From Escherichia coli (lineage in GTDB: Bacteria > Pseudomonadota > Gammaproteobacteria > Enterobacterales > Enterobacteriaceae), in the NCBI RefSeq assembly GCF_041248615.1, contig NZ_CP158426.1: a stretch of DNA of 64,000 nucleotides. The stretch is one strand, 5' to 3'. The notes under the pieces were generated by a model, which saw only the letters and a list, made by a program, of their open reading frames with translations, was not told where the DNA came from and made no database searches. Positions within the stretch are counted from its first letter, which is position 1. The number at the start of each line of letters is the position of its first letter. The position numbers were made by a program, and so were the translations under genes. Shown piece after piece: positions 72-41,701 of this stretch.

Positions 72-599
72 TCATGCCGCCCTCCTGACGCCCTGCCCGA
101 TCGCCATCAATGCCGCTTTGGATACGGTAGTAAACATCCGTCGAGGACTGATGAACGGTCGCCAAATCAGCAGCATGGAGCCTTTGCTGTTTCCCTTCTT
201 CTCCAGCCCTGTCGATGGTTCGATAAAATTAATCCGTCCATCAGTGATAATGCGAACTTCGTCGACACTCTCCAGAGCCTTGCTGAACCATCCGACTGAC
301 ATATCCTCTGGCACAAGCATAACTACCGTCTGTCGCTGTTGTATGCACTGCTCAGCGGCTTTTTCCACCCACGGCCTGATATTGCTGTACGGCGGGTTAT
401 TCCAGATTGCACCGTGGCTTACCCACTCAGAATTTAGCGCGTCGTCAGCCTCAGTTAGCCAGTGAGCGCACAGAGCATTTTTGTCGCTCGCTGCCGAATC
501 CAGCCAGAATCCAAACTCAATATCCAGTGCATCAAAAAGCCAAAGCGGCGTTTGCCAGCAGTCCTTGTCGTGTGCTGGCGTATTTGATTTGATAGTCAT
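72..599 (-). CDS. Phage DNA N-6-adenine methyltransferase (Dam-like)
   Basis: ORF track 72..659 trimmed to ATG at 599, which overlaps the ninB stop (ATGA). Protein contains NNPPYS (the N6-adenine MTase NPPY motif). Position after ninB is typical of lambdoid nin regions. Confidence 0.6.
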
Positions 600-1036
600 G
601 CAGCCCGATCTCCCCATCGCGCTTTCCATTCGAGAGCTAGTCGCGCTTCGTCTGACCACTTAACGCCACGCTCTGTACCGAATGCCTGTATAAGCTCTAA
701 TAGCTCCGCAAATTCGCTTACACGCATCCTGCTGGTTGACTGGCCTATTACCACAAAGCCATTCCCGGCAAGGTTAGGAACAACGTCCTGCTGCTTTAAT
801 GCTGCTGTAAAAACGCACTTCCAGCTTTCTGCATCCAGCCAGCGACCATGCCATTCAACCTGACGAGAGACGTCACCAAGGCAAGCCCAAAGCTTTCGAT
901 TCTGGTCTAAGCTGCGGTTGCGTTCCTGAATAGTTACTACGATTGGTTTGGTTGGGTCTGGAAGGATTTGCTGTACTGCGTGAATAGCGTTCTGCTGATG
1001 TGCTGGAGATCGAATTTCAAAGGTTAGTTTTTTCAT
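596..1036 (-). CDS. ninB: NinB recombination protein
   Basis: 146 aa from MKKLTFEIRSPAHQQNAIHAV...; matches lambda NinB as remembered. ORF track 596..1054 with the internal MKK start chosen. Confidence 0.85.
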   Translation of the reverse strand: MKKLTFEIRSPAHQQNAIHAVQQILPDPTKPIVVTIQERNRSLDQNRKLWACLGDVSRQVEWHGRWLDAESWKCVFTAALKQQDVVPNLAGNGFVVIGQSTSRMRVSEFAELLELIQAFGTERGVKWSDEARLALEWKARWGDRAA

Positions 1037-1116
1037 GACTTCCCTCTCCCCCAAATAAAAAGGCCTGCGATTACCAGCAGGCCTGTTATTAGCTCAGTGA
1101 TGTAGATGGTCATCTT

Positions 1117-1389
1117 TTAACTCCATATACCGCCAATACCCGTTTCATCGCGGCACTCCTTAAAAATTAGGTTCGTGCTCATCTTTCCTTCCCGTTCTTC
1201 CTTGGTAGCAAACCGGTAATACACCGTTCGCCAGACCTTACCTTCGATAACCAGAAGACCTGCCCGTGCCATTTTAGCCGCGGCCTGATTTATGCTGGTT
1301 ACTGTTGCGCCTGTTAGCGCGGCAACGTCCGGCGCACAGAAGCTATTATGCGTCCCCAGGTAATGAATAATTGCCTCTTTGCCCGTCAT
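1117..1389 (-). CDS. ren: Ren-like protein with divergent C-terminus
   Basis: 90 aa MTGKEAIIHYLGTHNSFCAPDVAALTGATVTSINQAAAKMARAG... matches lambda Ren over most of its length, then diverges at the C-terminus. Start overlaps the P stop (ATGA). Confidence 0.7.
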   Translation of the reverse strand: MTGKEAIIHYLGTHNSFCAPDVAALTGATVTSINQAAAKMARAGLLVIEGKVWRTVYYRFATKEEREGKMSTNLIFKECRDETGIGGIWS

Positions 1390-2087
1390 ACACTTGCTCC
1401 TTTCAGTCCGAACTTAGCTTTGAGTTCTGCGATCTTCGCCAGAGCCTGTGCACGATTTAGAGGTCTACCGCCCATAACAGGAAGTTGTTTTACTGGTTCA
1501 GGTATCGTCTCACCACGGTTAATTCGCGCTGTCATACAGGTCAGTTCATCGGCAGCCTTGCGCCGTAATTCCGCGTCAGTCAGCGCATTGGCCCGCATGT
1601 TCTGGTACAAGTTGGTAACCAACCAGTAATGCGCGTTCGATTTCCACGGATAAGACTCTGCATCCGGATACAGGCCACGCTTCCGGCAATACTCGTAAAC
1701 CATATCAACCAGCTCGCTGACGTTTGGCAGCCCGGCGTTAACGGATGCTTCTTCCCGGCACCAGGCGACAAACTGCCCGGGTGATGGCAGGAATGGTCGA
1801 TTCTGCCGACGGGCTACGCGCATTCCTGCGTTAACCTGTTCCATTGTGGTGATCCCGTTTTCCCGGAAAGCCAGAACCCACTGGCGGCGGATTTCGTTCA
1901 GTTCATTCTGGTCACGGTTAGCCAGGCTCGCCGGGAAAGTTGCCAGTAACTGGCTGAACACACCGTTGATGATCTGCGCTACCTGCTGTACCTGCGGCTT
2001 TTCGTCGTACTGTTCCGGCATGTTGTTGGCGATCCGACGCATCTGCTCACGGTCAAAGTTAACCATCTGTGCGGCGATGTTTTTCAT
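1386..2087 (-). CDS. P: Replication protein P (DnaB helicase loader)
   Basis: 233 aa MKNIAAQMVNFDREQMRRIANN...; near-identical to lambda P from memory. Start overlaps the O stop. Confidence 0.9.
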   Translation of the reverse strand: MKNIAAQMVNFDREQMRRIANNMPEQYDEKPQVQQVAQIINGVFSQLLATFPASLANRDQNELNEIRRQWVLAFRENGITTMEQVNAGMRVARRQNRPFLPSPGQFVAWCREEASVNAGLPNVSELVDMVYEYCRKRGLYPDAESYPWKSNAHYWLVTNLYQNMRANALTDAELRRKAADELTCMTARINRGETIPEPVKQLPVMGGRPLNRAQALAKIAELKAKFGLKGASV

Positions 2088-2983
2088 AAATCCACCCCGT
2101 AAATCCAGTCAGTGTTTGTCAGGTCGAGTTTTGGTTTGCTGGCTATCATGCCTGCCTGTTGCTTGTTACGGTTGATTTCGAGCTGGGTCCACTTGTCGCG
2201 GAGTTTGGCCGGACTCAGCACGTTACCGGACCAGAAGTTGTCCTGGCATGCCCAGCGGAACAGTACACACATATCGCGGTGGTTACGTCCGTCACGTTCA
2301 CGCATCAGGCGGATATCGTTAGCCCACCCTGCAAAATTCGGTTTTCTGGCTGATGGCGCGATGGTCTTCACCATGTCAAACATCCACTCTGCGGCGGTCA
2401 GGTCTTCTGCTGTCCCCCACTTGCTGCCGCTCTGAATTGCAGCATCCGGTTTCACCACAGGAAGATCGTTTTCTGGCTGGTCAGAGGATTCGCCAGAATT
2501 CTCGGACGAATAATCTTTTCTTTTTTCTTTTGTAATAGTGTCTTTTGTGTCCCTCTGTTTTGAGGGATAGCAATCCCCCAATTTGAGGGATGTTTTATCC
2601 CTCGTTTTAGGGGATTTTCCCTCGTTTTGAGGGATACACCATTCTGAGATGTTTTTATTTGGTCCAAACATGCCGCCTTGCTGCTTGATAATATTCATTC
2701 TGACGAGTTCTAACTTGGCTTCATTGCACCGTTTGACAGGTAACTTTGTAATCTCGCTAAGTTGAGAATCGGTGATTCTGTCCATTGGTTTATTCCACCC
2801 ATAGGTTTTACGCAGAATGGCAAGCAGCACTTTAAACTGTCGCTTGGTCAGATCTGCGCCTGAATAAGCCTCAAGCAGCATATTTGATAGTCTGGCGTAA
2901 CCATCATCGAGATCTGCCACATTACGCTCCTGTCCGGCAAAGTTACCTCTGCCGAAGTTGAGTATTTTTGCTGTATTTGTCAT
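2084..2983 (-). CDS. O: Replication initiator protein O
   Basis: ORF track 2084..3028 trimmed to MTNTAKILNFGR... (299 aa), the lambda O start. The gene contains the ori iterons. Confidence 0.9.
   Translation of the reverse strand: MTNTAKILNFGRGNFAGQERNVADLDDGYARLSNMLLEAYSGADLTKRQFKVLLAILRKTYGWNKPMDRITDSQLSEITKLPVKRCNEAKLELVRMNIIKQQGGMFGPNKNISEWCIPQNEGKSPKTRDKTSLKLGDCYPSKQRDTKDTITKEKRKDYSSENSGESSDQPENDLPVVKPDAAIQSGSKWGTAEDLTAAEWMFDMVKTIAPSARKPNFAGWANDIRLMRERDGRNHRDMCVLFRWACQDNFWSGNVLSPAKLRDKWTQLEINRNKQQAGMIASKPKLDLTNTDWIYGVDL
2551..2636. repeat. ori-lambda-type iterons (four ~19 bp O-binding repeats) inside the O gene
   Basis: Four direct repeats of the form (a)tccctc-N6-gaggga(t) at about 2551-2569, 2573-2592, 2597-2616 and 2618-2636, with an AT-rich tract next to them at 2500-2550. 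Confidence 0.75.
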
Positions 2984-2984
2984 A

Positions 2985-3060
2985 ATGACTCCTGTGGATT
3001 GATCCAGTCTTTCTACATCAGGCCTCAAAACTGTTGCAGCAGTCTTGAGGCTTTTCTTTT
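2985..3060 (+). ncRNA. Candidate oop-like antisense RNA ending in an intrinsic terminator
   Basis: On the + strand a 7 bp stem gcctcaa/ttgaggc (3022-3028 / 3045-3051) is followed by ttttctttt. It overlaps the last codons of the cII-like gene on the opposite strand, as lambda oop does. The 5' end is not determinable from sequence. Confidence 0.35.
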
Positions 3061-3296
3061 GTCAGCACCATGGCTACTTTCTTTGCTAGCTTTGCTAATT
3101 CCTCGTCTTCAACACCCCACTCCAGCACAGCCAGAAGCATGGCCATCTTTGGGATAAAGCTGTCTTTCCATCGCGAAATTTGCGATTCATTAATCCCTAA
3201 TGCATCAGCAACCTTTCGCTGACCACGTACAGCAATTCGATTCAGGATGTTGCTTGTGATTGCATTCGCTTTCTTGCGAGTACTTGTAAGTTGCAT
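3018..3296 (-). CDS. CII-like lysogeny activator (P22 C1-type)
   Basis: ORF track 3018..3383 trimmed to ATG at 3296 (MQLTSTRKKANAITSNILNRIAVRGQRKVADALGINESQISRW...). HTH protein similar to CII/C1 family as remembered. Sits between cro and O. Confidence 0.7.
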   Translation of the reverse strand: MQLTSTRKKANAITSNILNRIAVRGQRKVADALGINESQISRWKDSFIPKMAMLLAVLEWGVEDEELAKLAKKVAMVLTKEKPQDCCNSFEA

Positions 3297-3353
3297 ATGT
3301 AAGTATTTCCTTAACAAATAAGAAGTTATACGCACCAACTGATGCGCGTTGTA

Positions 3354-3398
3354 TTCCCGCATTTCGGCGGGAATAAGGACCATGACTGTTAAAGAGCA
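3354..3398 (-). promoter_or_regulatory. nutR (boxA-like and boxB hairpin) on the rightward transcript
   Basis: Reverse complement contains tgctctttaac (boxA-like) and the hairpin cccgccgaaatgcggg, the same boxB sequence as nutL. Located between cro and the cII-like gene, as in lambda. Confidence 0.5.
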
Positions 3399-3404
3399 AT
3401 TTGC

Positions 3405-3590
3405 TTATGCCGCTTTGCGATAAGCACTTTCTTGATACTTCAGGGCGCCAGCTGTAACGACTTCCAGTCGATAGGCGTCTTTCTCTGGGATGACTTCCTT
3501 CCACTGAGAAACTGCTGCATCGCTAATGCCTAACGCTTTAGCTACCGCACGCTGGGTTCCGAAGTGGTCGATAACATCTTTCTTGTACAT
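3405..3590 (-). CDS. cro: Cro repressor (P22-type)
   Basis: 61 aa MYKKDVIDHFGTQRAVAKALGISDAAVSQWKE...; matches P22 Cro as remembered. Divergent from the repressor gene. Confidence 0.8.
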   Translation of the reverse strand: MYKKDVIDHFGTQRAVAKALGISDAAVSQWKEVIPEKDAYRLEVVTAGALKYQESAYRKAA

Positions 3591-3670
3591 AGACTCGCTC
3601 CGAAATTAAAGAACACTTAAATTATCTATCAAAGGAATCTTAAGTCAAGTTTATTTAAGATGTCTTAACT
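3591..3670. promoter_or_regulatory. OR operator / PR-PRM divergent promoter region
   Basis: 80 bp AT-rich spacer between divergent cro and c2, with repeated atttaag / cttaa(a/g)t half-site-like motifs (atttaagatgtcttaact, aatcttaagtc) resembling P22-type operators. Confidence 0.5.
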
Positions 3671-4321
3671 ATGAATACACAACTGATGGGTGAGCGTATT
3701 CGCGCTCGCAGAAAAGAACTTAAGATTAGGCAGGCTGCCCTTGGCAAGATGGTTGGCGTGTCTAATGTTGCTATTTCCCAATGGGAGCGTTCTGAAACTG
3801 AGCCCAATGGCGAAAACCTATTGGCTTTAGCCAAGGCTTTACAGTGCTCCCCTGATTACTTGTTGAAAGGAGAAGATAGTCTTTCAAACATTGCCTATCA
3901 CAGCAGGCATGATCCAAGAGGTTCGTATCCTCTAATTAGTTGGGTAAGCGCAGGATGTTGGATGGAAGCTGTAGAGCCATATCATAAGCGTGCAATAGAT
4001 AACTGGTACGATACAACCGTAGATTGTTCAGAAGATTCGTTTTGGCTGGACGTAAAGGGTGATTCGATGACGGCTCCAGCCGGTCTTAGCATCCCGGAAG
4101 GGATGATAATACTAGTCGATCCTGAAGTAGAACCTCGTAATGGGAAGCTGGTAGTGGCAAAGCTCGAAGGAGAAAACGAGGCAACTTTCAAGAAGTTAGT
4201 TATTGATGCTGGCAGAAGGTTTCTAAAACCACTTAACCCACAATATCCGATGATTGAGATCAACGGGAACTGCAAAATCATCGGTGTAGTTGTCGATGCA
4301 AAAATAGCAAACCTTCCATAA
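3671..4321 (+). CDS. c2: Prophage repressor (P22 C2-like)
   Basis: 216 aa MNTQLMGERIRARRKELKIRQAALGKMVGVSNVAISQWE... with an N-terminal HTH and a C-terminal LexA-like self-cleavage domain; matches P22 C2 from memory. Confidence 0.9.
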   Translation: MNTQLMGERIRARRKELKIRQAALGKMVGVSNVAISQWERSETEPNGENLLALAKALQCSPDYLLKGEDSLSNIAYHSRHDPRGSYPLISWVSAGCWMEAVEPYHKRAIDNWYDTTVDCSEDSFWLDVKGDSMTAPAGLSIPEGMIILVDPEVEPRNGKLVVAKLEGENEATFKKLVIDAGRRFLKPLNPQYPMIEINGNCKIIGVVVDAKIANLP

Positions 4322-4343
4322 GGGGCATTCGCCCCTTTTTTTC
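4322..4343 (+). terminator. Intrinsic terminator after c2
   Basis: Hairpin ggggcattcgcccc followed by an 8-T tract immediately after the c2 stop. Confidence 0.5.
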
Positions 4344-4440
4344 TTTCCTTTAAAAATCAAAGCAAAACTTAAACTTCGCAATAAAATTTAAGTTTTCTTC
4401 AAAAACACTCTTGACCAATAATTAAAGAAATCTTAAATTT
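4344..4440. promoter_or_regulatory. OL / PL operator-promoter region (candidate)
   Basis: AT-rich region with aatttaagttttctt and aaatcttaaatttaag motifs similar to those in the OR region, upstream of nutL and N. Confidence 0.4.
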
Positions 4441-4485
4441 AAGTCATCAGCAGGACGCTGGTAGCCAAACGGAACAGATTGGCAG

Positions 4486-4526
4486 GCTCTTTAACATTGA
4501 TGGGATTGTCCCGCCGAAATGCGGGA
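4486..4526 (+). promoter_or_regulatory. nutL (boxA gctctttaac plus boxB hairpin)
   Basis: gctctttaac at 4486-4495 and hairpin tcccgc-cgaaat-gcggga at 4509-4526, upstream of N. The boxB is identical to the nutR copy. Confidence 0.5.
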
Positions 4527-4633
4527 ACCAAAGAGTAGTTGGCTTTGGGGTGACGTGAAGTGCAGCTGCACGACGGCAACCGGAAGATAAGCACCCGGCG
4601 CGTCACCGCCAAAGTCAATCATCGGAGGTCAAC

Positions 4634-4933
4634 ATGGCAGTAGTCATTACATATCTGGCTGACGATAACGCCAGAAATCGCCGCAGAGCACGCAGACAGG
4701 CTCAACGTGAACAGGCAATGCAAGAACAGCGACTGGCGCGAAAGATTGCGCTAAAGCTCTCTGGTTGCGTCAGAGCAGATAAAGCAGCATCACTCGGAAG
4801 CCTTCGCTGCAAGAAGGCAGAAGAGGTCGAGAGTAAACGGAATCGTATTTACTACCGCAAGCCACGCAGTGAAATGGGTGTGACTTGTGTTGGTCGCCAG
4901 AAAATGAAATTAGGCAGTAAGCCACTTATTTGA
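4634..4933 (+). CDS. N: N-type transcription antiterminator (phage-21-like)
   Basis: 99 aa with an arginine-rich N-terminal motif (NARNRRRARRQAQREQ) and C-terminus GRQKMKLGSKPLI resembling lambda/phage 21 N. Located downstream of nutL. Confidence 0.75.
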   Translation: MAVVITYLADDNARNRRRARRQAQREQAMQEQRLARKIALKLSGCVRADKAASLGSLRCKKAEEVESKRNRIYYRKPRSEMGVTCVGRQKMKLGSKPLI

Positions 4934-4944
4934 GAGGAATTAAT

Positions 4945-5568
4945 ATGTCATCAATCCGCTTAACTACGAGAATGAAAGAGGAAATCGCTCGTAACGCTTT
5001 AATTAAGTCTGGGGTTTTCACTGAACTTGAAGAAGTAACAAAGTTAAAGAACCAGCTTGCACTTGACGCCAGAGTTATTGCGTTTGGCGGTAAAAAGAAA
5101 ACTGAGGAAGTGGATCAGTTATCATCCAAGTTGGTAGCTATAAGTGAAGAACTTGAAAAGATGGGATGTTCATTTTACTCATACGATGTTCGTTCTACTT
5201 CAATTTATCTGACTGTATCTGGCAGAAGGGTTGGATGGCTTTCATATGGGAAAGACGGCAACGGCGAAGATATATTGCTCCCTGCTCCGAACAAAGATAA
5301 ATGCATGTTTAGCGCAGAACACGAAATAACAAAAAGGTTTGATGAAATCTGCGCATTGCAACAAAAACTTGAAGCCAAGAAAAAGGATATCGAATCAAAT
5401 GTATGGGCTGCTTTGAACTCAGTCACAACAGTTAAGCGACTTATTGAAGTTTGGCCTGAAAGCAAAGAGTTGCTACCAAAAGAAGCAGATAAAGCAAGTA
5501 CAGCACTTCCTGCTTTACGGGTAGAAGATTTGAATAAGATGATTGGACTTCCTTCCGAGGCCGCATAG
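4945..5568 (+). CDS. Hypothetical protein (207 aa), no family recognised
   Basis: ORF track 4930..5568 trimmed to ATG 4945 preceded by gaggaa. Occupies the ral/sieB position between N and cIII. Confidence 0.5.
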   Translation: MSSIRLTTRMKEEIARNALIKSGVFTELEEVTKLKNQLALDARVIAFGGKKKTEEVDQLSSKLVAISEELEKMGCSFYSYDVRSTSIYLTVSGRRVGWLSYGKDGNGEDILLPAPNKDKCMFSAEHEITKRFDEICALQQKLEAKKKDIESNVWAALNSVTTVKRLIEVWPESKELLPKEADKASTALPALRVEDLNKMIGLPSEAA

Positions 5569-11544: not shown

Positions 11545-11763
11545 ATGTACTTGACACTTCAGGAGTGGAATGCACGCCAGCGACGCCCAAGAAGCCTTGA
11601 AACAGTTCGTCGATGGGTGCGCGAATGCAGGATATTCCCTCCTCCGGTTAAGGATGGAAGAGAATATCTGTTCCACGAATCAGCGGTAAAGGTTGACTTA
11701 AATCGACCAGTAACAGGTAGCCTTTTGAAGAGGATCAGAAATGGGAAGAAGGCGAAGTCATGA
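11545..11763 (+). CDS. xis: Excisionase Xis
   Basis: 72 aa MYLTLQEWNARQRRPRSLETVRRWVRECRIFPPPVKDGREYLFHESAVKVDL...; matches lambda Xis from memory. Overlaps the int start. Confidence 0.9.
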   Translation: MYLTLQEWNARQRRPRSLETVRRWVRECRIFPPPVKDGREYLFHESAVKVDLNRPVTGSLLKRIRNGKKAKS

Positions 11764-12811
11764 GCGCCGGGATTTACCCCCTAACCTTTATATAAGAAAC
11801 AATGGATATTACTGCTACAGGGACCCAAGGACGGGTAAAGAGTTTGGATTAGGCAGAGACAGGCGAATCGCAATCACTGAAGCCATACAGGCCAACATTG
11901 AGTTATTTTCAGGACACAAACACAAGCCTCTGACAGCGAGAATCAACAGTGATAATTCCGTTACGCTACATTCATGGCTTGATCGCTACGAAAAAATCCT
12001 GGCCAGCAGAGGAATCAAGCAGAAGACACTCATAAATTACATGAGCAAAATTAAAGCAATAAGGAGGGGGCTGCCTGATGCTCCACTTGAAGACATCACC
12101 ACAAAAGAAATTGCGGCAATGCTCAATGGATACATAGACGAGGGCAAGGCGGCGTCAGCCAAGTTAATCAGATCAACACTGAGCGATGCATTCCGAGAGG
12201 CAATAGCTGAAGGCCATATAACAACAAACCCTGTCGCTGCCACTCGCGCAGCAAAATCAGAGGTAAGGAGATCAAGACTTACGGCTGACGAATACCTGAA
12301 AATTTATCAAGCAGCAGAATCATCACCATGTTGGCTCAGACTTGCAATGGAACTGGCTGTTGTTACCGGGCAACGAGTTGGTGATTTATGCGAAATGAAG
12401 TGGTCTGATATCGTAGATGGATATCTTTATGTCGAGCAAAGCAAAACAGGCGTAAAAATTGCCATCCCAACAACATTGCATGTTGATGCTCTCGGGATAT
12501 CAATGAAGGAAACACTTGATAAATGCAAAGAGATTCTTGGCGGAGAAACCATAATTGCATCTACTCGTCGTGAACCGCTTTCATCCGGCACAGTATCAAG
12601 GTATTTTATGCGCGCACGAAAAGCATCAGGTCTTTCCTTCGAAGGGGATCCGCCTACCTTTCACGAGTTGCGCAGTTTGTCTGCAAGACTCTATGAGAAG
12701 CAGATAAGCGATAAGTTTGCTCAACATCTTCTCGGGCATAAGTCGGACACCATGGCATCACAGTATCGTGATGACAGAGGCAGGGAGTGGGACAAAATTG
12801 AAATCAAATAA
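11741..12811 (+). CDS. int: Tyrosine integrase Int (lambda-type)
   Basis: 356 aa MGRRRSHERRDLPPNLYIRNNGYYCYRDPRTGKEFGLGRD...; essentially lambda Int from memory. The adjacent P' arm and core follow. Confidence 0.95.
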   Translation: MGRRRSHERRDLPPNLYIRNNGYYCYRDPRTGKEFGLGRDRRIAITEAIQANIELFSGHKHKPLTARINSDNSVTLHSWLDRYEKILASRGIKQKTLINYMSKIKAIRRGLPDAPLEDITTKEIAAMLNGYIDEGKAASAKLIRSTLSDAFREAIAEGHITTNPVAATRAAKSEVRRSRLTADEYLKIYQAAESSPCWLRLAMELAVVTGQRVGDLCEMKWSDIVDGYLYVEQSKTGVKIAIPTTLHVDALGISMKETLDKCKEILGGETIIASTRREPLSSGTVSRYFMRARKASGLSFEGDPPTFHELRSLSARLYEKQISDKFAQHLLGHKSDTMASQYRDDRGREWDKIEIK

Positions 12812-33284: not shown

Positions 33285-33995
33285 TAAGGCTCTCTTACCA
33301 GCCGCGCCCTAACAGGCGCACACGATCTGACATTTGCATCCAACTTCGTTACTTACGGCCCGTAAACGGGCTGCCCGGATAGGGAATCGATAACTGCTCT
33401 CCCATTTTATCCTCTTCAAGCTGGTGCTTTATGTAATCCTGTATCTTCGCCGTGTTCTTACCCACCGTATCGACGTAGTACCCTCTGCACCAGAACTCTC
33501 TGTTCCTGTATTTGAATTTCAAATCACCAAACTGCTCGTAAAGCATCAGACTGCTTTTCCCTTTCAGATATCCCATAAAGCCGGATACGCTCATTTTGGG
33601 CGGGATCTCCACAAGCATATGGATATGATCTGCACAGCATTCAGCTTCAAGAATCCGTACGCTTTTCCACTCACACAGCTTTCTCAAAATACTGCCTATT
33701 GCTCTACGCTTCTCTCTGTAGAACACTTGTCTTCGGTATTTTGGCGCAAAAACTATGTGATATTTACAGTTCCATCGGGTGTGCGCTAAGCTCTTTTCGT
33801 TCCCCATTGGGACCCCCTTTTGATTTCTTGTTTGACACTTGCAGTTGCCAGACCGCAAGGTGTTTTAACAAATCAAAAGGGGTTTTAATAACTGGCTCAA
33901 AGCTGAAAGCTTTCCGGAACCCCCAGCCTAGCTGGGGGTTTTCTGTGCACAATGAGAAAGCCGACTGCAAGTGAGTCGGCTTTTTTGTTTGTCGT
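33285..33995 (-). mobile_element. IS200-family insertion sequence (approximate ends)
   Basis: Contains a 152 aa Y1 (HUH) transposase gene; element size approx 0.7 kb consistent with IS200. A strong hairpin gccgactgcaagtgagtcggc with T-tract at 33961-33988 lies near the tnpA-proximal end. Exact ends not determined. Confidence 0.6.
33349..33807 (-). CDS. tnpA: IS200/IS605-family transposase TnpA (Y1 HUH transposase)
   Basis: Track ORF 33349..33858 trimmed to MGNEKSLAHTRWNCKYHIVFAPKYRRQVFY... (152 aa), with the HxH motif (DHIHMLVEIPP) and a conserved Tyr region. Confidence 0.85.
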   Translation of the reverse strand: MGNEKSLAHTRWNCKYHIVFAPKYRRQVFYREKRRAIGSILRKLCEWKSVRILEAECCADHIHMLVEIPPKMSVSGFMGYLKGKSSLMLYEQFGDLKFKYRNREFWCRGYYVDTVGKNTAKIQDYIKHQLEEDKMGEQLSIPYPGSPFTGRK

Positions 33996-38939: not shown

Positions 38940-39308
38940 GATAGCAAAAAAGCGCCTTTAGGGCGCTTTTTTACATTGGTGGGTCGTGCAGGATGACTCG
39001 CTTCGCTCGCCCTTCGGGCCGTCGCCGCGAGCGGCTCCGTTGTTTCGCTGCGCTCAACTCAAACCTGCTGCAGGTTCGAATCTTTGAGTATCGCAGATAG
39101 CAAAAAAGCGCCTTTAGGGCGCTTTTTTACATTGGTGGGTCGTGCAGGATGACTCGCTTCGCTCGCCCTTCGGGCCGTCGCCGCGAGCGGCTCCGTTGTT
39201 TCGCTGCGCTCAACTCGAACCTGCTGCAGGTTCGAATCTTTGAGTATCGCAGATAGCAAAAAAGCGCCTTTAGGGCGCTTTTTTACATTGGTGGGTCGTG
39301 CAGGATTC
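38940..39308. repeat. Tandem repeat, 156 bp unit x ~2.4, downstream of the tRNA operon; each unit has a terminator hairpin and a 17 nt tRNA-Lys 3' fragment
   Basis: Units at 38940-39095 and 39096-39251, with a partial third copy merging into the 3' end of the last tRNA-Lys. Each unit holds aaaaaagcgcctttagggcgctttttt plus tggtgggtcgtgcagga plus tgactcgcttcgctcgcccttcgggccg... Confidence 0.8.
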
Positions 39309-39364
39309 GAACCTGCGACCAATTGATTAAAAGTCAACTGCTCTACCAACTGAGCTAACGACCC
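39289..39364 (-). tRNA. lysQ: tRNA-Lys (anticodon UUU)
   Basis: 76 nt; reverse complement matches E. coli tRNA-Lys (GGGTCGTTAGCTCAGTTGGTAGAGCAGTTGACTTTTAATCAATTGGTCGCAGGTTCGAATCCTGCACGACCCACCA). Name assigned by K-12 operon order. Confidence 0.9.
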
Positions 39365-39397
39365 CTTGCGGGATTATGCTGCTTTAATCATTCAGGA

Positions 39398-39473
39398 TGG
39401 TGGGTCGTGCAGGATTCGAACCTGCGACCAATTGATTAAAAGTCAACTGCTCTACCAACTGAGCTAACGACCC
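39398..39473 (-). tRNA. lysZ: tRNA-Lys (UUU)
   Basis: Same 76 nt tRNA-Lys sequence; name by K-12 operon order. Confidence 0.9.
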
Positions 39474-39619
39474 ATACGGGTGTTACCTGAAAGATTTCTA
39501 CTCGGAACCAATCTTTAAAATTGGTGGGTCGTGCAGGATGACTCGCTTCGCTCGCCCTTCGGGCCGTTGCTGGCGCAACGTTATCCTTCACGCTTAACAT
39601 CTGAGTTTGATGTTAAAAT

Positions 39620-39695
39620 TGGTGGGTCGTGCAGGATTCGAACCTGCGACCAATTGATTAAAAGTCAACTGCTCTACCAACTGAGCTAACGACCC
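39620..39695 (-). tRNA. lysY: tRNA-Lys (UUU)
   Basis: Same 76 nt tRNA-Lys sequence; name by K-12 operon order. Confidence 0.9.
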
Positions 39696-39698
39696 GAG

Positions 39699-39774
39699 TG
39701 GTGGGTGATGACGGGATCGAACCGCCGACCCCCTCCTTGTAAGGGAGGTGCTCTCCCAGCTGAGCTAATCACCC
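39699..39774 (-). tRNA. valZ: tRNA-Val (anticodon UAC)
   Basis: 76 nt; reverse complement matches E. coli tRNA-Val(UAC) (GGGTGATTAGCTCAGCTGGGAGAGCACCTCCCTTACAAGGAGGGGGTCGGCGGTTCGATCCCGTCATCACCCACCA). Confidence 0.9.
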
Positions 39775-39825
39775 GATACTGCGCTGGATACTACAAACTA
39801 CTTCCACCGAACCCACCGTAATTAG

Positions 39826-39901
39826 TGGTGGGTCGTGCAGGATTCGAACCTGCGACCAATTGATTAAAAGTCAACTGCTCTACCAACTGAGCTAACGACC
39901 C
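39826..39901 (-). tRNA. lysW: tRNA-Lys (UUU)
   Basis: Same 76 nt tRNA-Lys sequence. Confidence 0.9.
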
Positions 39902-39903
39902 GG

Positions 39904-39979
39904 TGGTGGGTGATGACGGGATCGAACCGCCGACCCCCTCCTTGTAAGGGAGGTGCTCTCCCAGCTGAGCTAATCACCC
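39904..39979 (-). tRNA. valT: tRNA-Val (UAC)
   Basis: Same 76 nt tRNA-Val sequence. Confidence 0.9.
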
Positions 39980-40114
39980 GATACTACGCTGGATACTACA
40001 ACTAACTATGTTAGTGGTGGGTCGTGCAGGATGACTCGACTTCGTCTCGCCCTTCGGGCCGTTGCTGACGCAACGTTATCCTTCACGTTTTACTACCGCT
40101 TCCACCTTAGCGAT

Positions 40115-40190
40115 TGGTGGGTCGTGCAGGATTCGAACCTGCGACCAATTGATTAAAAGTCAACTGCTCTACCAACTGAGCTAACGACCC
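40115..40190 (-). tRNA. lysT: tRNA-Lys (UUU), first gene of the operon
   Basis: Same 76 nt tRNA-Lys sequence; the promoter is expected upstream at higher coordinates. Confidence 0.9.
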
Positions 40191-40354: not shown

Positions 40355-41146
40355 TTACATCGCGTTCAGACGTTTTTGCGCCTGTTTAGCGCCATCAGTA
40401 CCAGGGTATTTACTGATAACCTGCTGGTATACGGCTTTCGCTTTTGCGGTATCACCTTTGTCCTGCATGATGACGCCGACTTTAAACATCGCATCTGCAG
40501 CCTTTGGTGACTTCGGATAGTTTTTCACTACCGAAGCAAAATAATACGCCGCATCATCTTTTTTACCCTTGTTGTAGTTTAACTGACCCAGCCAATAATT
40601 GGCGTTTGGCAGGTAAGTTGAATCAGGGTAATTTTTGATGAAATTCTGAAATGCCACCATTGCGTCATCCTGGCGGGATTTATCCTGCACCAGCGCAATA
40701 GCTGCATTGTAATCCGTGTTTGCATCACCGCTTTTCACCGGCGCGCCAGCATTCGCAGTACCAGCATCAGCTGTCGGCGTCGTTGATGCCGCCGCACCGC
40801 TTTGATCGCCGCTGGTTGATTGCGCCGCTGCACCACCGCTGCTGAGGCTATCGATCTGCAACAGGATCTGCTTTTGCCGCTCCACGACCTGATTCAGTTG
40901 ATACTGATTTTCCTGAATCTGACCACGCAGGGAATCAATATCGGATTGATTATCAGAGAGTTGTTGCTGGAGTTGGGTTAAAAGCTGGCTGTGAGCATTT
41001 GAAATACGCTCAAGTTGAGTGACGCGGTCTTCGACCGAGCCTGAGCCGACACTACTGATTGGTGCCTGAGCAAAAGCGGCCCAGGGGGCCGCTATACCAA
41101 CCAGTAACGACAGACTCAATAGTTGATGTCTGAAGTTACTGCTCAT
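40355..41146 (-). CDS. cpoB: Cell division coordinator CpoB (YbgF), TPR protein
   Basis: 263 aa with signal peptide, coiled coil and C-terminal TPR repeats; downstream of pal. Confidence 0.9.
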   Translation of the reverse strand: MSSNFRHQLLSLSLLVGIAAPWAAFAQAPISSVGSGSVEDRVTQLERISNAHSQLLTQLQQQLSDNQSDIDSLRGQIQENQYQLNQVVERQKQILLQIDSLSSGGAAAQSTSGDQSGAAASTTPTADAGTANAGAPVKSGDANTDYNAAIALVQDKSRQDDAMVAFQNFIKNYPDSTYLPNANYWLGQLNYNKGKKDDAAYYFASVVKNYPKSPKAADAMFKVGVIMQDKGDTAKAKAVYQQVISKYPGTDGAKQAQKRLNAM

Positions 41147-41155
41147 GCAATTCTC

Positions 41156-41701
<546 letters not shown>

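Follow-up and report, generated by a model that had tools for sequence, protein, structure and literature searches.

HK620-type nut sites and a P22-like candidate oop RNA in the early regulatory region of a mosaic lambdoid prophage of Escherichia coli

Background

The boxB elements of phages lambda, P22 and phi21 are proven RNA sites, and the complex formed between the phi21 N peptide and its boxB has been solved. The co-switching of RNA site and peptide is said to have been described classically for these three phages, by Franklin in 1985. A further pair of sites is annotated as 'putative N-utilization' in the record of phage HK620 (GenBank AF335538). The HK620-type pair of N and boxB has carried the annotation 'putative' since 2001, and we found no functional or structural study of this pair in the openly searchable literature.

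The early region of lambdoid phages is also the source of a small antisense RNA, oop. In lambda, oop lowers cII in an RNase III-dependent manner (Krinke and Wulff 1987, as cited in PMC7067206 and PMC12197685). Its P22 counterpart, P22C-oop, measures 63 nt and was found by small-RNA sequencing in Salmonella infected with P22 (PMC13397905); that paper counts it among four P22 small RNAs reported before, a report it attributes to Backhaus and Petri (1984). An OOP at the same position has been located by RNA-seq in BTP1, a P22-like prophage (PMC7067206).

Here we report a computational analysis of the early region of a lambdoid prophage contained in a 64-kb stretch of E. coli DNA, hereafter referred to as the window. 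The region is very probably the early regulatory core of the prophage, combining N/nut antitermination with an oop antisense RNA, both of known kinds. Judged by homology, its N/nut elements and its oop are members of families already known, with sequences exactly or nearly described in HK620 and P22.

Results and discussion

Gene map and mosaic composition of the early region

The early half of the prophage occupies the first ~12.8 kb of the window, and the integrase gene (11739-12809) adjoins ybhC, which corresponds to the lambda attachment site. The + strand carries the pL operon and the - strand the pR operon (Table 1). Intact open reading frames are present for N, cI, cro, cII, O, P, int and xis; ren is frameshifted, on which account the prophage may be partly defective. 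The chromosome of E. coli NRZ14408 (NZ_LT599825.1) matches the window at 100% over the region tested.

By sequence comparison the region is a mosaic, in which a P22/phage 21-type immunity region is combined with HK620-type nut sites, N N-terminus and cII, with a phi21-type N C-terminus and with lambda-type O and P. Such a mosaic is unremarkable among lambdoid phages. The segment spanning cII, tR1 and nutR is 95-100% identical to that of HK620, whereas the repressor, cro and operators are of the P22/phage 21 type, unlike those of HK620. Phage 21 shares with the window the immunity region (92-100% identity over cro and cI), boxA, the middle and C-terminal parts of N and the overall layout, but its cII and oop are lambda-type.

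Table 1. Genes, signals and predicted RNA elements of the early region, in window coordinates
Feature	Position	Strand	Basis
P	1386-2087	-	lambda-type
O	2084-2983	-	Pfam Phage_rep_O; lambda-type
pO-like promoter, TTGAGT-17-CATAAT with upstream TG	2958-2986	+	promoter scan
Predicted oop-like antisense RNA, 63 nt	2997-3059	+	homology to P22C-oop; start could be 2994-2997
cII-like gene	3018-3296	-	Pfam Phage_CII, E = 2e-44; 89% identical to P22 C1 (BLASTP)
Candidate tR1, upstream of the cII-like start	3313-3347	-	fold: hairpin 3347-3330, then U-rich run 3329-3313
boxB of nutR	3354-3372	-	19-mer identical to nutL boxB; annotated nutR in HK620
boxA of nutR (uGCTCTTTAACa)	3388-3397	-	exact match
cro	3405-3590	-	Pfam P22_Cro
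Repressor	3671-4321	+	93% identical to P22 C2
pL-like promoter, TTGACC-17-TAAATT	4411-4439	+	promoter scan
boxA of nutL (GCTCTTTAAC)	4486-4495	+	exact match; identical in HK620, N7, CUS-3, phage 21 and 83 nutL copies
boxB of nutL	4509-4527	+	stem UCCCGC/GCGGGA, hexaloop CGAAAU; invariant in 83 copies; annotated nutL in HK620
Long hairpin of the N leader, after nutL and before the N ribosome-binding site	4536-4626	+	MFE fold
N antiterminator gene, 99 aa	4634-4933	+	PHROG 271

A matched pair of nut sites in the two early operons

Exactly two copies of the boxB 16-mer CCCGCCGAAATGCGGG are present in the window, one on each strand (4510-4525, +; 3371-3356, -), against a chance expectation of 0.07; two or more matches were obtained in 0 of 100 shuffles, and a search of the window allowing up to two mismatches returned no further copies. 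Identity between the two sites extends to the 19-mer TCCCGCCGAAATGCGGGAA. The boxA sequence GCTCTTTAAC, a near-match to the rrn/P22-type consensus, is likewise present in exactly two copies (4486-4495, +; 3397-3388, -), each located 5' of a boxB on the same strand and separated from it by 14 or 16 nt. Taken alone, the boxA 10-mer with one mismatch is not rare, and its significance rests on the pairing with boxB. Each boxB folds into a 6- to 9-bp stem capped by a CGAAAU loop. The order of elements, a boxA and then a GC-rich boxB hairpin whose loop contains GAAA, is that of lambda.

The two sites occupy the expected positions in the two operons. nutL is placed between the pL-like promoter and N, ~40-80 nt downstream of the pL start, for which homology to the annotated phage 21 start predicts a position near 4446, and nutR falls within the interval from the cro stop (3405) to the cII-like start (3296). 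A third nut site, as found in mEp021-type phages, was not detected in the window even at two mismatches. The initial annotation of this DNA had described an identical boxB on the + strand before N and on the - strand between cro and cII, each with a boxA beside it, and had read the two as nutL and nutR. The sequence description was confirmed, and the reading as nut sites is supported by their place and orientation, by the annotation of the same sequences in HK620 and, as detailed below, by the way in which they track the N arginine-rich motif across phages. On this comparison the sites are not new, since the GenBank record of HK620 already labels them as a putative nutL and a putative nutR. 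The nutL sequences of HK620 and the window agree throughout 42 nt, and those of nutR differ at one position before boxA and at one in the spacer. The same nut sites are carried by phages N7, CUS-3 and HK140.

Two further structured elements flank the nut sites. In the pL operon, the long hairpin of the N leader is conserved with respect to phi21-type leaders, with four compensatory pairs, and by analogy we infer that it corresponds to the lambda N-leader RNase III hairpin. In the pR operon, the candidate tR1 lies where the records of HK620 and phage 21 place a tR1, and a hairpin is seen at this position in every type compared. A predicted pairing of boxA with the Shine-Dalgarno region of cII was also considered and was dropped because it is absent in P22 and phi21.

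The N protein and its arginine-rich motif

Pfam and NCBIfam returned no matches for N, which was recognized instead through PHROGs and PDB sequence searches. The protein matches PHROG 271, 'anti-termination protein N-like', with E = 8e-36, and its residues 62-99 match the C-terminus of lambda N in 6GOV (E = 0.0016), that is, the RNA-polymerase-binding end. It is 69% identical to phage 21 N. In its layout an HK620-type N-terminus precedes a shared middle region and a phi21/lambda-type C-terminus, so that, as in lambda N, an arginine-rich motif (ARM) at the N-terminus is combined with C-terminal parts predicted to bind NusA and RNA polymerase. Dependence on Nus factors is presumed to be a further trait in common with lambda.

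The ARM, located at residues about 11-30, is of the HK620 type (DNARNRRRARRQAQREQA, compared with GTAKSRYKARRAELIAERR in phage 21) and follows the pattern A-x-x-RRR-x-RR, as in lambda. In an alignment of HK620-, phi21- and P22-type N proteins, the columns A13, R16, R20 and R21 are invariant. The first ~63 residues are those of HK620 N except at residues 2 (A here, T in HK620) and 57 (L here, I in HK620). The C-termini differ in type, that of the window being phi21/lambda-type (ending in RIYYRKPRSEMGVTCVGRQKMKLGSKPLI) and that of HK620 being HK620/P22-type (ending in LPNVAIYAAGYRKSKQLTAR). Assignment of N to the well-studied H-19B/933W type was ruled out, the 933W nut sites having a P22-like GCGCUGACAAAGCGC boxB and the H-19B ARM being RSRRRER.

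boxB type follows the type of the N N-terminus

The association between boxB and N was examined in 85 sequences with an HK620-type N N-terminus, comprising the window, four named phages and 80 IMG/VR loci. An identical boxB was present at both nut sites in 82 of them. Two of the three exceptions are truncated contigs, and the third is an IMG/VR locus in which the N gene is preceded by unrelated DNA and no nut site. The boxB hairpin is invariant in all 165 copies, which leaves no within-type covariation to back the hairpin; its backing comes from the comparison between types. Spacing between nutL and nutR ranges from 1153 to 2990 bp and forms about six classes, indicating that the same nut pair brackets different immunity inserts.

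Other N types have other boxB sequences. Three phages with phi21-type N (phage 21, HK629 and mEp235) carry a CUAACC-loop boxB at both sites, in phage 21 as a hexaloop on stems different from those of the window, and the P22 boxB and the annotated 933W nut sites have GACAA loops. All four combinations of N-terminus and C-terminus exist, represented by HK620, HK629, phage 21, and the window or CUS-3, and among the phages compared boxB always follows the type of the N N-terminus. A sliding comparison with phage 21 locates the switch: from cro through the operators and repressor, and again in the N leader and the C-terminus of N, identity is 80-100%, and it falls to ~50-65% at the nutL boxB, in the N-terminal third of N and in everything from the nutR boxB leftward. 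The locus is thereby a clear example of fine-scale mosaicism, and the joint switching of three patches (both boxB elements and the N-terminal part of N) is what would be expected under selection for matched RNA-peptide specificity. On this comparative evidence, boxB type is matched to the N ARM.

A repeat that is inverted and perfectly conserved might instead act as DNA, the 16- to 19-bp element being a protein-binding site or a recombination 'boundary sequence' and not an RNA hairpin bound by N. The CUS-3 interval between cI and N is indeed annotated as a mosaic 'boundary sequence', and one locus (L036) shows an exchange of nutL and nutR. Against this, each copy is a self-complementary hairpin on the transcribed strand, right after boxA, in each early operon; the element changes type in step with the arginine-rich motif of N, rather than with repressor or operators; and boxB lies at the same positions in lambda, P22 and phi21, where it functions as RNA. 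We regard a purely DNA-level role as extremely improbable and retain the interpretation of the repeats as boxB RNA hairpins.

It may also be asked whether the elements, though of a known kind, are relics of a cryptic prophage that no longer uses N, nut or oop. The frameshifted ren would fit such a history, as would the start of N, which reads MAVV in four sequences including that of the window and MTVV, the common form, in 76, and the occurrence of a related locus that has N and lacks nut sites. The open reading frames listed above as intact nevertheless include N, the repressor and replication genes, integrase and excisionase, and the nut sites, pO and oop terminator match those of plaque-forming phages such as HK620, N7, CUS-3 and HK140 exactly or nearly. 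Decay of the system is unlikely, and we favour a regulatory core that would still be in use.

A candidate oop antisense RNA at the cII-like gene's 3' end

On the + strand, the -10 hexamer of the pO-like promoter overlaps the O start codon of the opposite strand (the O ATG is the complement of 2981-2983), and the predicted RNA begins about 10 nt past the promoter. Its fold consists of a small 5' hairpin followed by a strong terminator hairpin (3021-3052, extendable to 3020-3053) and a U-tract at 3052-3060 (CUUUUCUUUU). For the 73-nt predicted RNA the MFE is -26.5 kcal/mol (z = -4.0), a value equalled by 0 of 200 shuffles. A simple terminator scan missed this terminator only because of an internal 1x1 mismatch. 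Since the cII-like stop codon is at 3018-3020, the predicted RNA is complementary to the last 13 codons of the gene plus the stop. A strong terminator at the cII 3' end had been noted in the initial annotation, at 2985-3060; the terminator is there, but that interval corresponds to the whole predicted RNA.

Positions 2997-3059 are identical to P22C-oop at 61 of 63 positions, and the two differences (3036 and 3038) both fall in the terminator loop. As in the window, the P22 promoter lies over the start of a replication gene and the RNA overlaps the 3' end of C1/cII; upstream of the promoter, the window has lambda-type O, compared with orf48/gene 18 in P22. With lambda oop (77 nt) the window shares the -10 and the first ~17 nt, beyond which body and terminator are unrelated. 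In promoter, in a terminator placed within cII and in homology, the predicted RNA is therefore a lambdoid oop, and as a near-exact counterpart of P22 oop it is not new. The oop-like candidate proposed in the initial annotation gains support from this identity, and the P22-type nature it ascribed to cII agrees with the likeness to C1 (Table 1); the element of surprise that it attached to an oop beside a P22-type cII was unwarranted, as P22 has an oop of its own.

Of 91 scanned sequences, 63 retain both the pO -10 motif and the initial ~17 nt of the RNA, whatever gene underlies the promoter. Three oop RNA bodies occur among the scanned loci, namely the lambda type and two P22-type terminators whose inner stems differ and are both fully paired. 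Single-base variants keep the pairing, with changes such as G-C to G-U or G-U to A-U.

These observations bear on whether the + strand hairpin at 3020-3053 might be a mere structure of the cII mRNA 3' end, or a by-product of coding, with no separate antisense RNA. The hairpin does sit inside coding sequence, and the pO -35 element is weak or variable among relatives. Yet the U-tract is found on the + strand only, the - strand having no U-run after the stem; the extended -10 promoter is retained, with constant spacing, even over differing genes; and a 63-nt RNA with exactly these ends has been sequenced from P22-infected cells (PMC13397905), in addition to the OOP mapped in BTP1 (PMC7067206). 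A structure confined to the cII message is thus very unlikely, and an antisense RNA of the oop family is the reading that we adopt.

Proposed working of the region

The sequences, placement, folds, homology and boxB/N-terminus co-occurrence described above can be assembled into a scheme in which binding, antitermination and the antisense effect are carried over from what is known of lambda, P22 and phi21. The pL and pR transcripts would each bear one nut site. boxA would recruit host NusB/NusE, and N would attach through its arginine-rich N-terminus to the boxB hairpin (UCCCGC-CGAAAU-GCGGGA). Tethered in this way to the nascent RNA, N would engage NusA and RNA polymerase through its middle and C-terminal parts. 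The polymerase, now resistant to termination, would pass tR1 into cII-O-P, and the leftward terminators as well; a polymerase heading for cII-O-P would evidently meet the candidate tR1 (3347-3313, -) as the first terminator to override. The boxB/N-terminus pair of HK620 specificity would have been recombined into an immunity region of the P22/phage 21 type, together with a phi21/lambda-type N C-terminus. In parallel, a constitutive promoter over the O start codon would make an RNA of ~63 nt, the orthologue of P22 and lambda oop, whose pairing with the 3' end of cII mRNA would lower cII expression.

The HK620-type N-terminus and the CGAAAU boxB may represent a fourth mode of N-peptide/boxB recognition, orthogonal to those of lambda, P22 and phi21, a proposal that we make tentatively and to which we give slightly less than an even chance. 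The loop of lambda boxB is a GAAAA/GAAGA pentaloop closed by U-A, whereas the CGAAAU hexaloop is possibly a GAAA tetraloop closed by a C-U mismatch. In what we take to be the lambda N sequence, Trp18 aligns with Ala in the window N, which presumably has no aromatic residue there. A fourth mode, if true, would provide an extra orthogonal RNA-tethering pair and a test case for ARM peptides reading GNRA-like folds. Beyond the HK620-type specificity, the locus raises no new question.

Annotation and prevalence

The value of these results lies mainly in annotation, as N, nut and oop are missed by Pfam, NCBIfam and Rfam models. In RefSeq the N of the window is labelled 'hypothetical protein', and nutL, nutR and oop are unannotated in the genome. 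Rfam scans of the whole window at the gathering threshold, and of positions 2900-4700 at E <= 1, returned nothing for nut or oop, a result that reflects the absence of a model and not the absence of the elements. Of 5,426 complete E. coli genomes, 546 (~10%) carry the module formed by nutL and the N N-terminus.

Features of the immunity region

Between boxB of nutL (boxB-L) and the ribosome-binding site of N, the antiterminator gene of this lambdoid prophage, the leader can fold into a long hairpin of some 19 or more base pairs, which is retained relative to phi21-type leaders with four compensatory pairs. In all probability it corresponds to the hairpin in the lambda N leader that is processed by RNase III. 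An unexplained small RNA of P22, "P22B", ends 16 nt ahead of gene 24 (PMC13397905), and may be the processed product of this hairpin.

On the opposite strand, boxA of nutR is predicted to pair with the Shine-Dalgarno region of the cII-like gene, and the fold of the whole region has a z of -3.8. HK620 and N7 have a counterpart of the pairing yet P22 and phage 21 do not, and it may therefore have arisen by chance; if real, it could couple occupancy of boxA to translation of cII. Directly past nutR, where HK620 and phage 21 have the terminator tR1 annotated, a hairpin precedes a U-rich run; in P22, phage L and phage 21 this position is taken by a hairpin of different sequence. The cII-like gene itself contains, inside its 5' end, a sequence that fits both the cII/C1 binding site and the location of pRE as given in the phage 21 and HK620 annotations.

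Coordinates of features in the window
Feature	Position	Strand	Remarks
Phage N-6-adenine methyltransferase ORF	72-599		
NinB	596-1036		
ren	1110-1389	-	annotated as frameshifted
TTGCgagtacTTGT	3273-3286	+	fits TTGY-N6-TTGY
Hairpin and U-rich run	3313-3347	-	tR1 position as annotated in HK620 and phage 21
boxA UCUUUAACAG with Shine-Dalgarno region UUGUUAAGGA	3395-3386 with 3317-3308	-	predicted pairing
N-leader hairpin	4536-4626	+	
N	4634-4933	+	begins MAVV
Gene directly 3' of N	4945-5568	+	PHROG 1965 (function unknown); product annotated as "Nmad5 family putative nucleotide modification protein"
IS200C transposase	33347-33940	-	between gpmA and aroG
lysT-valT tRNA array with its RtT repeats	38977-40190		four RtT repeats
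CpoB/ybgF thermometer	41117-41255		

Relatives with unusual nut arrangements

In one IMG/VR relative (L036, about 2800-2853, minus strand) the boxA-boxB spacer of nutR is of the nutL type. This points to an exchange of sequence between nutL and nutR, which may be the reason why both boxBs remain identical. Another relative, L079 (4300-4800), has an intact HK620-type N gene preceded by unrelated DNA, and neither boxA nor boxB was found anywhere in its 9.3 kb; its N may be an orphan in a rearranged or defective prophage.

Other observations

The MAVV start of N is found in only four sequences, versus 76 beginning MTVV. RefSeq lists the protein as hypothetical, although its near-identical counterparts in other genomes bear the name "transcriptional antitermination N peptide". 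The slot after N, taken here by the Nmad5-annotated gene, holds Nun, ral or sieB-type exclusion genes in other lambdoid phages. Because ren carries an annotated frameshift, the prophage may have decayed in part; the methyltransferase ORF and NinB are also present. An Rfam STnc490 match (146 bits) adjoins the IS200C transposase in the gpmA-aroG interval.
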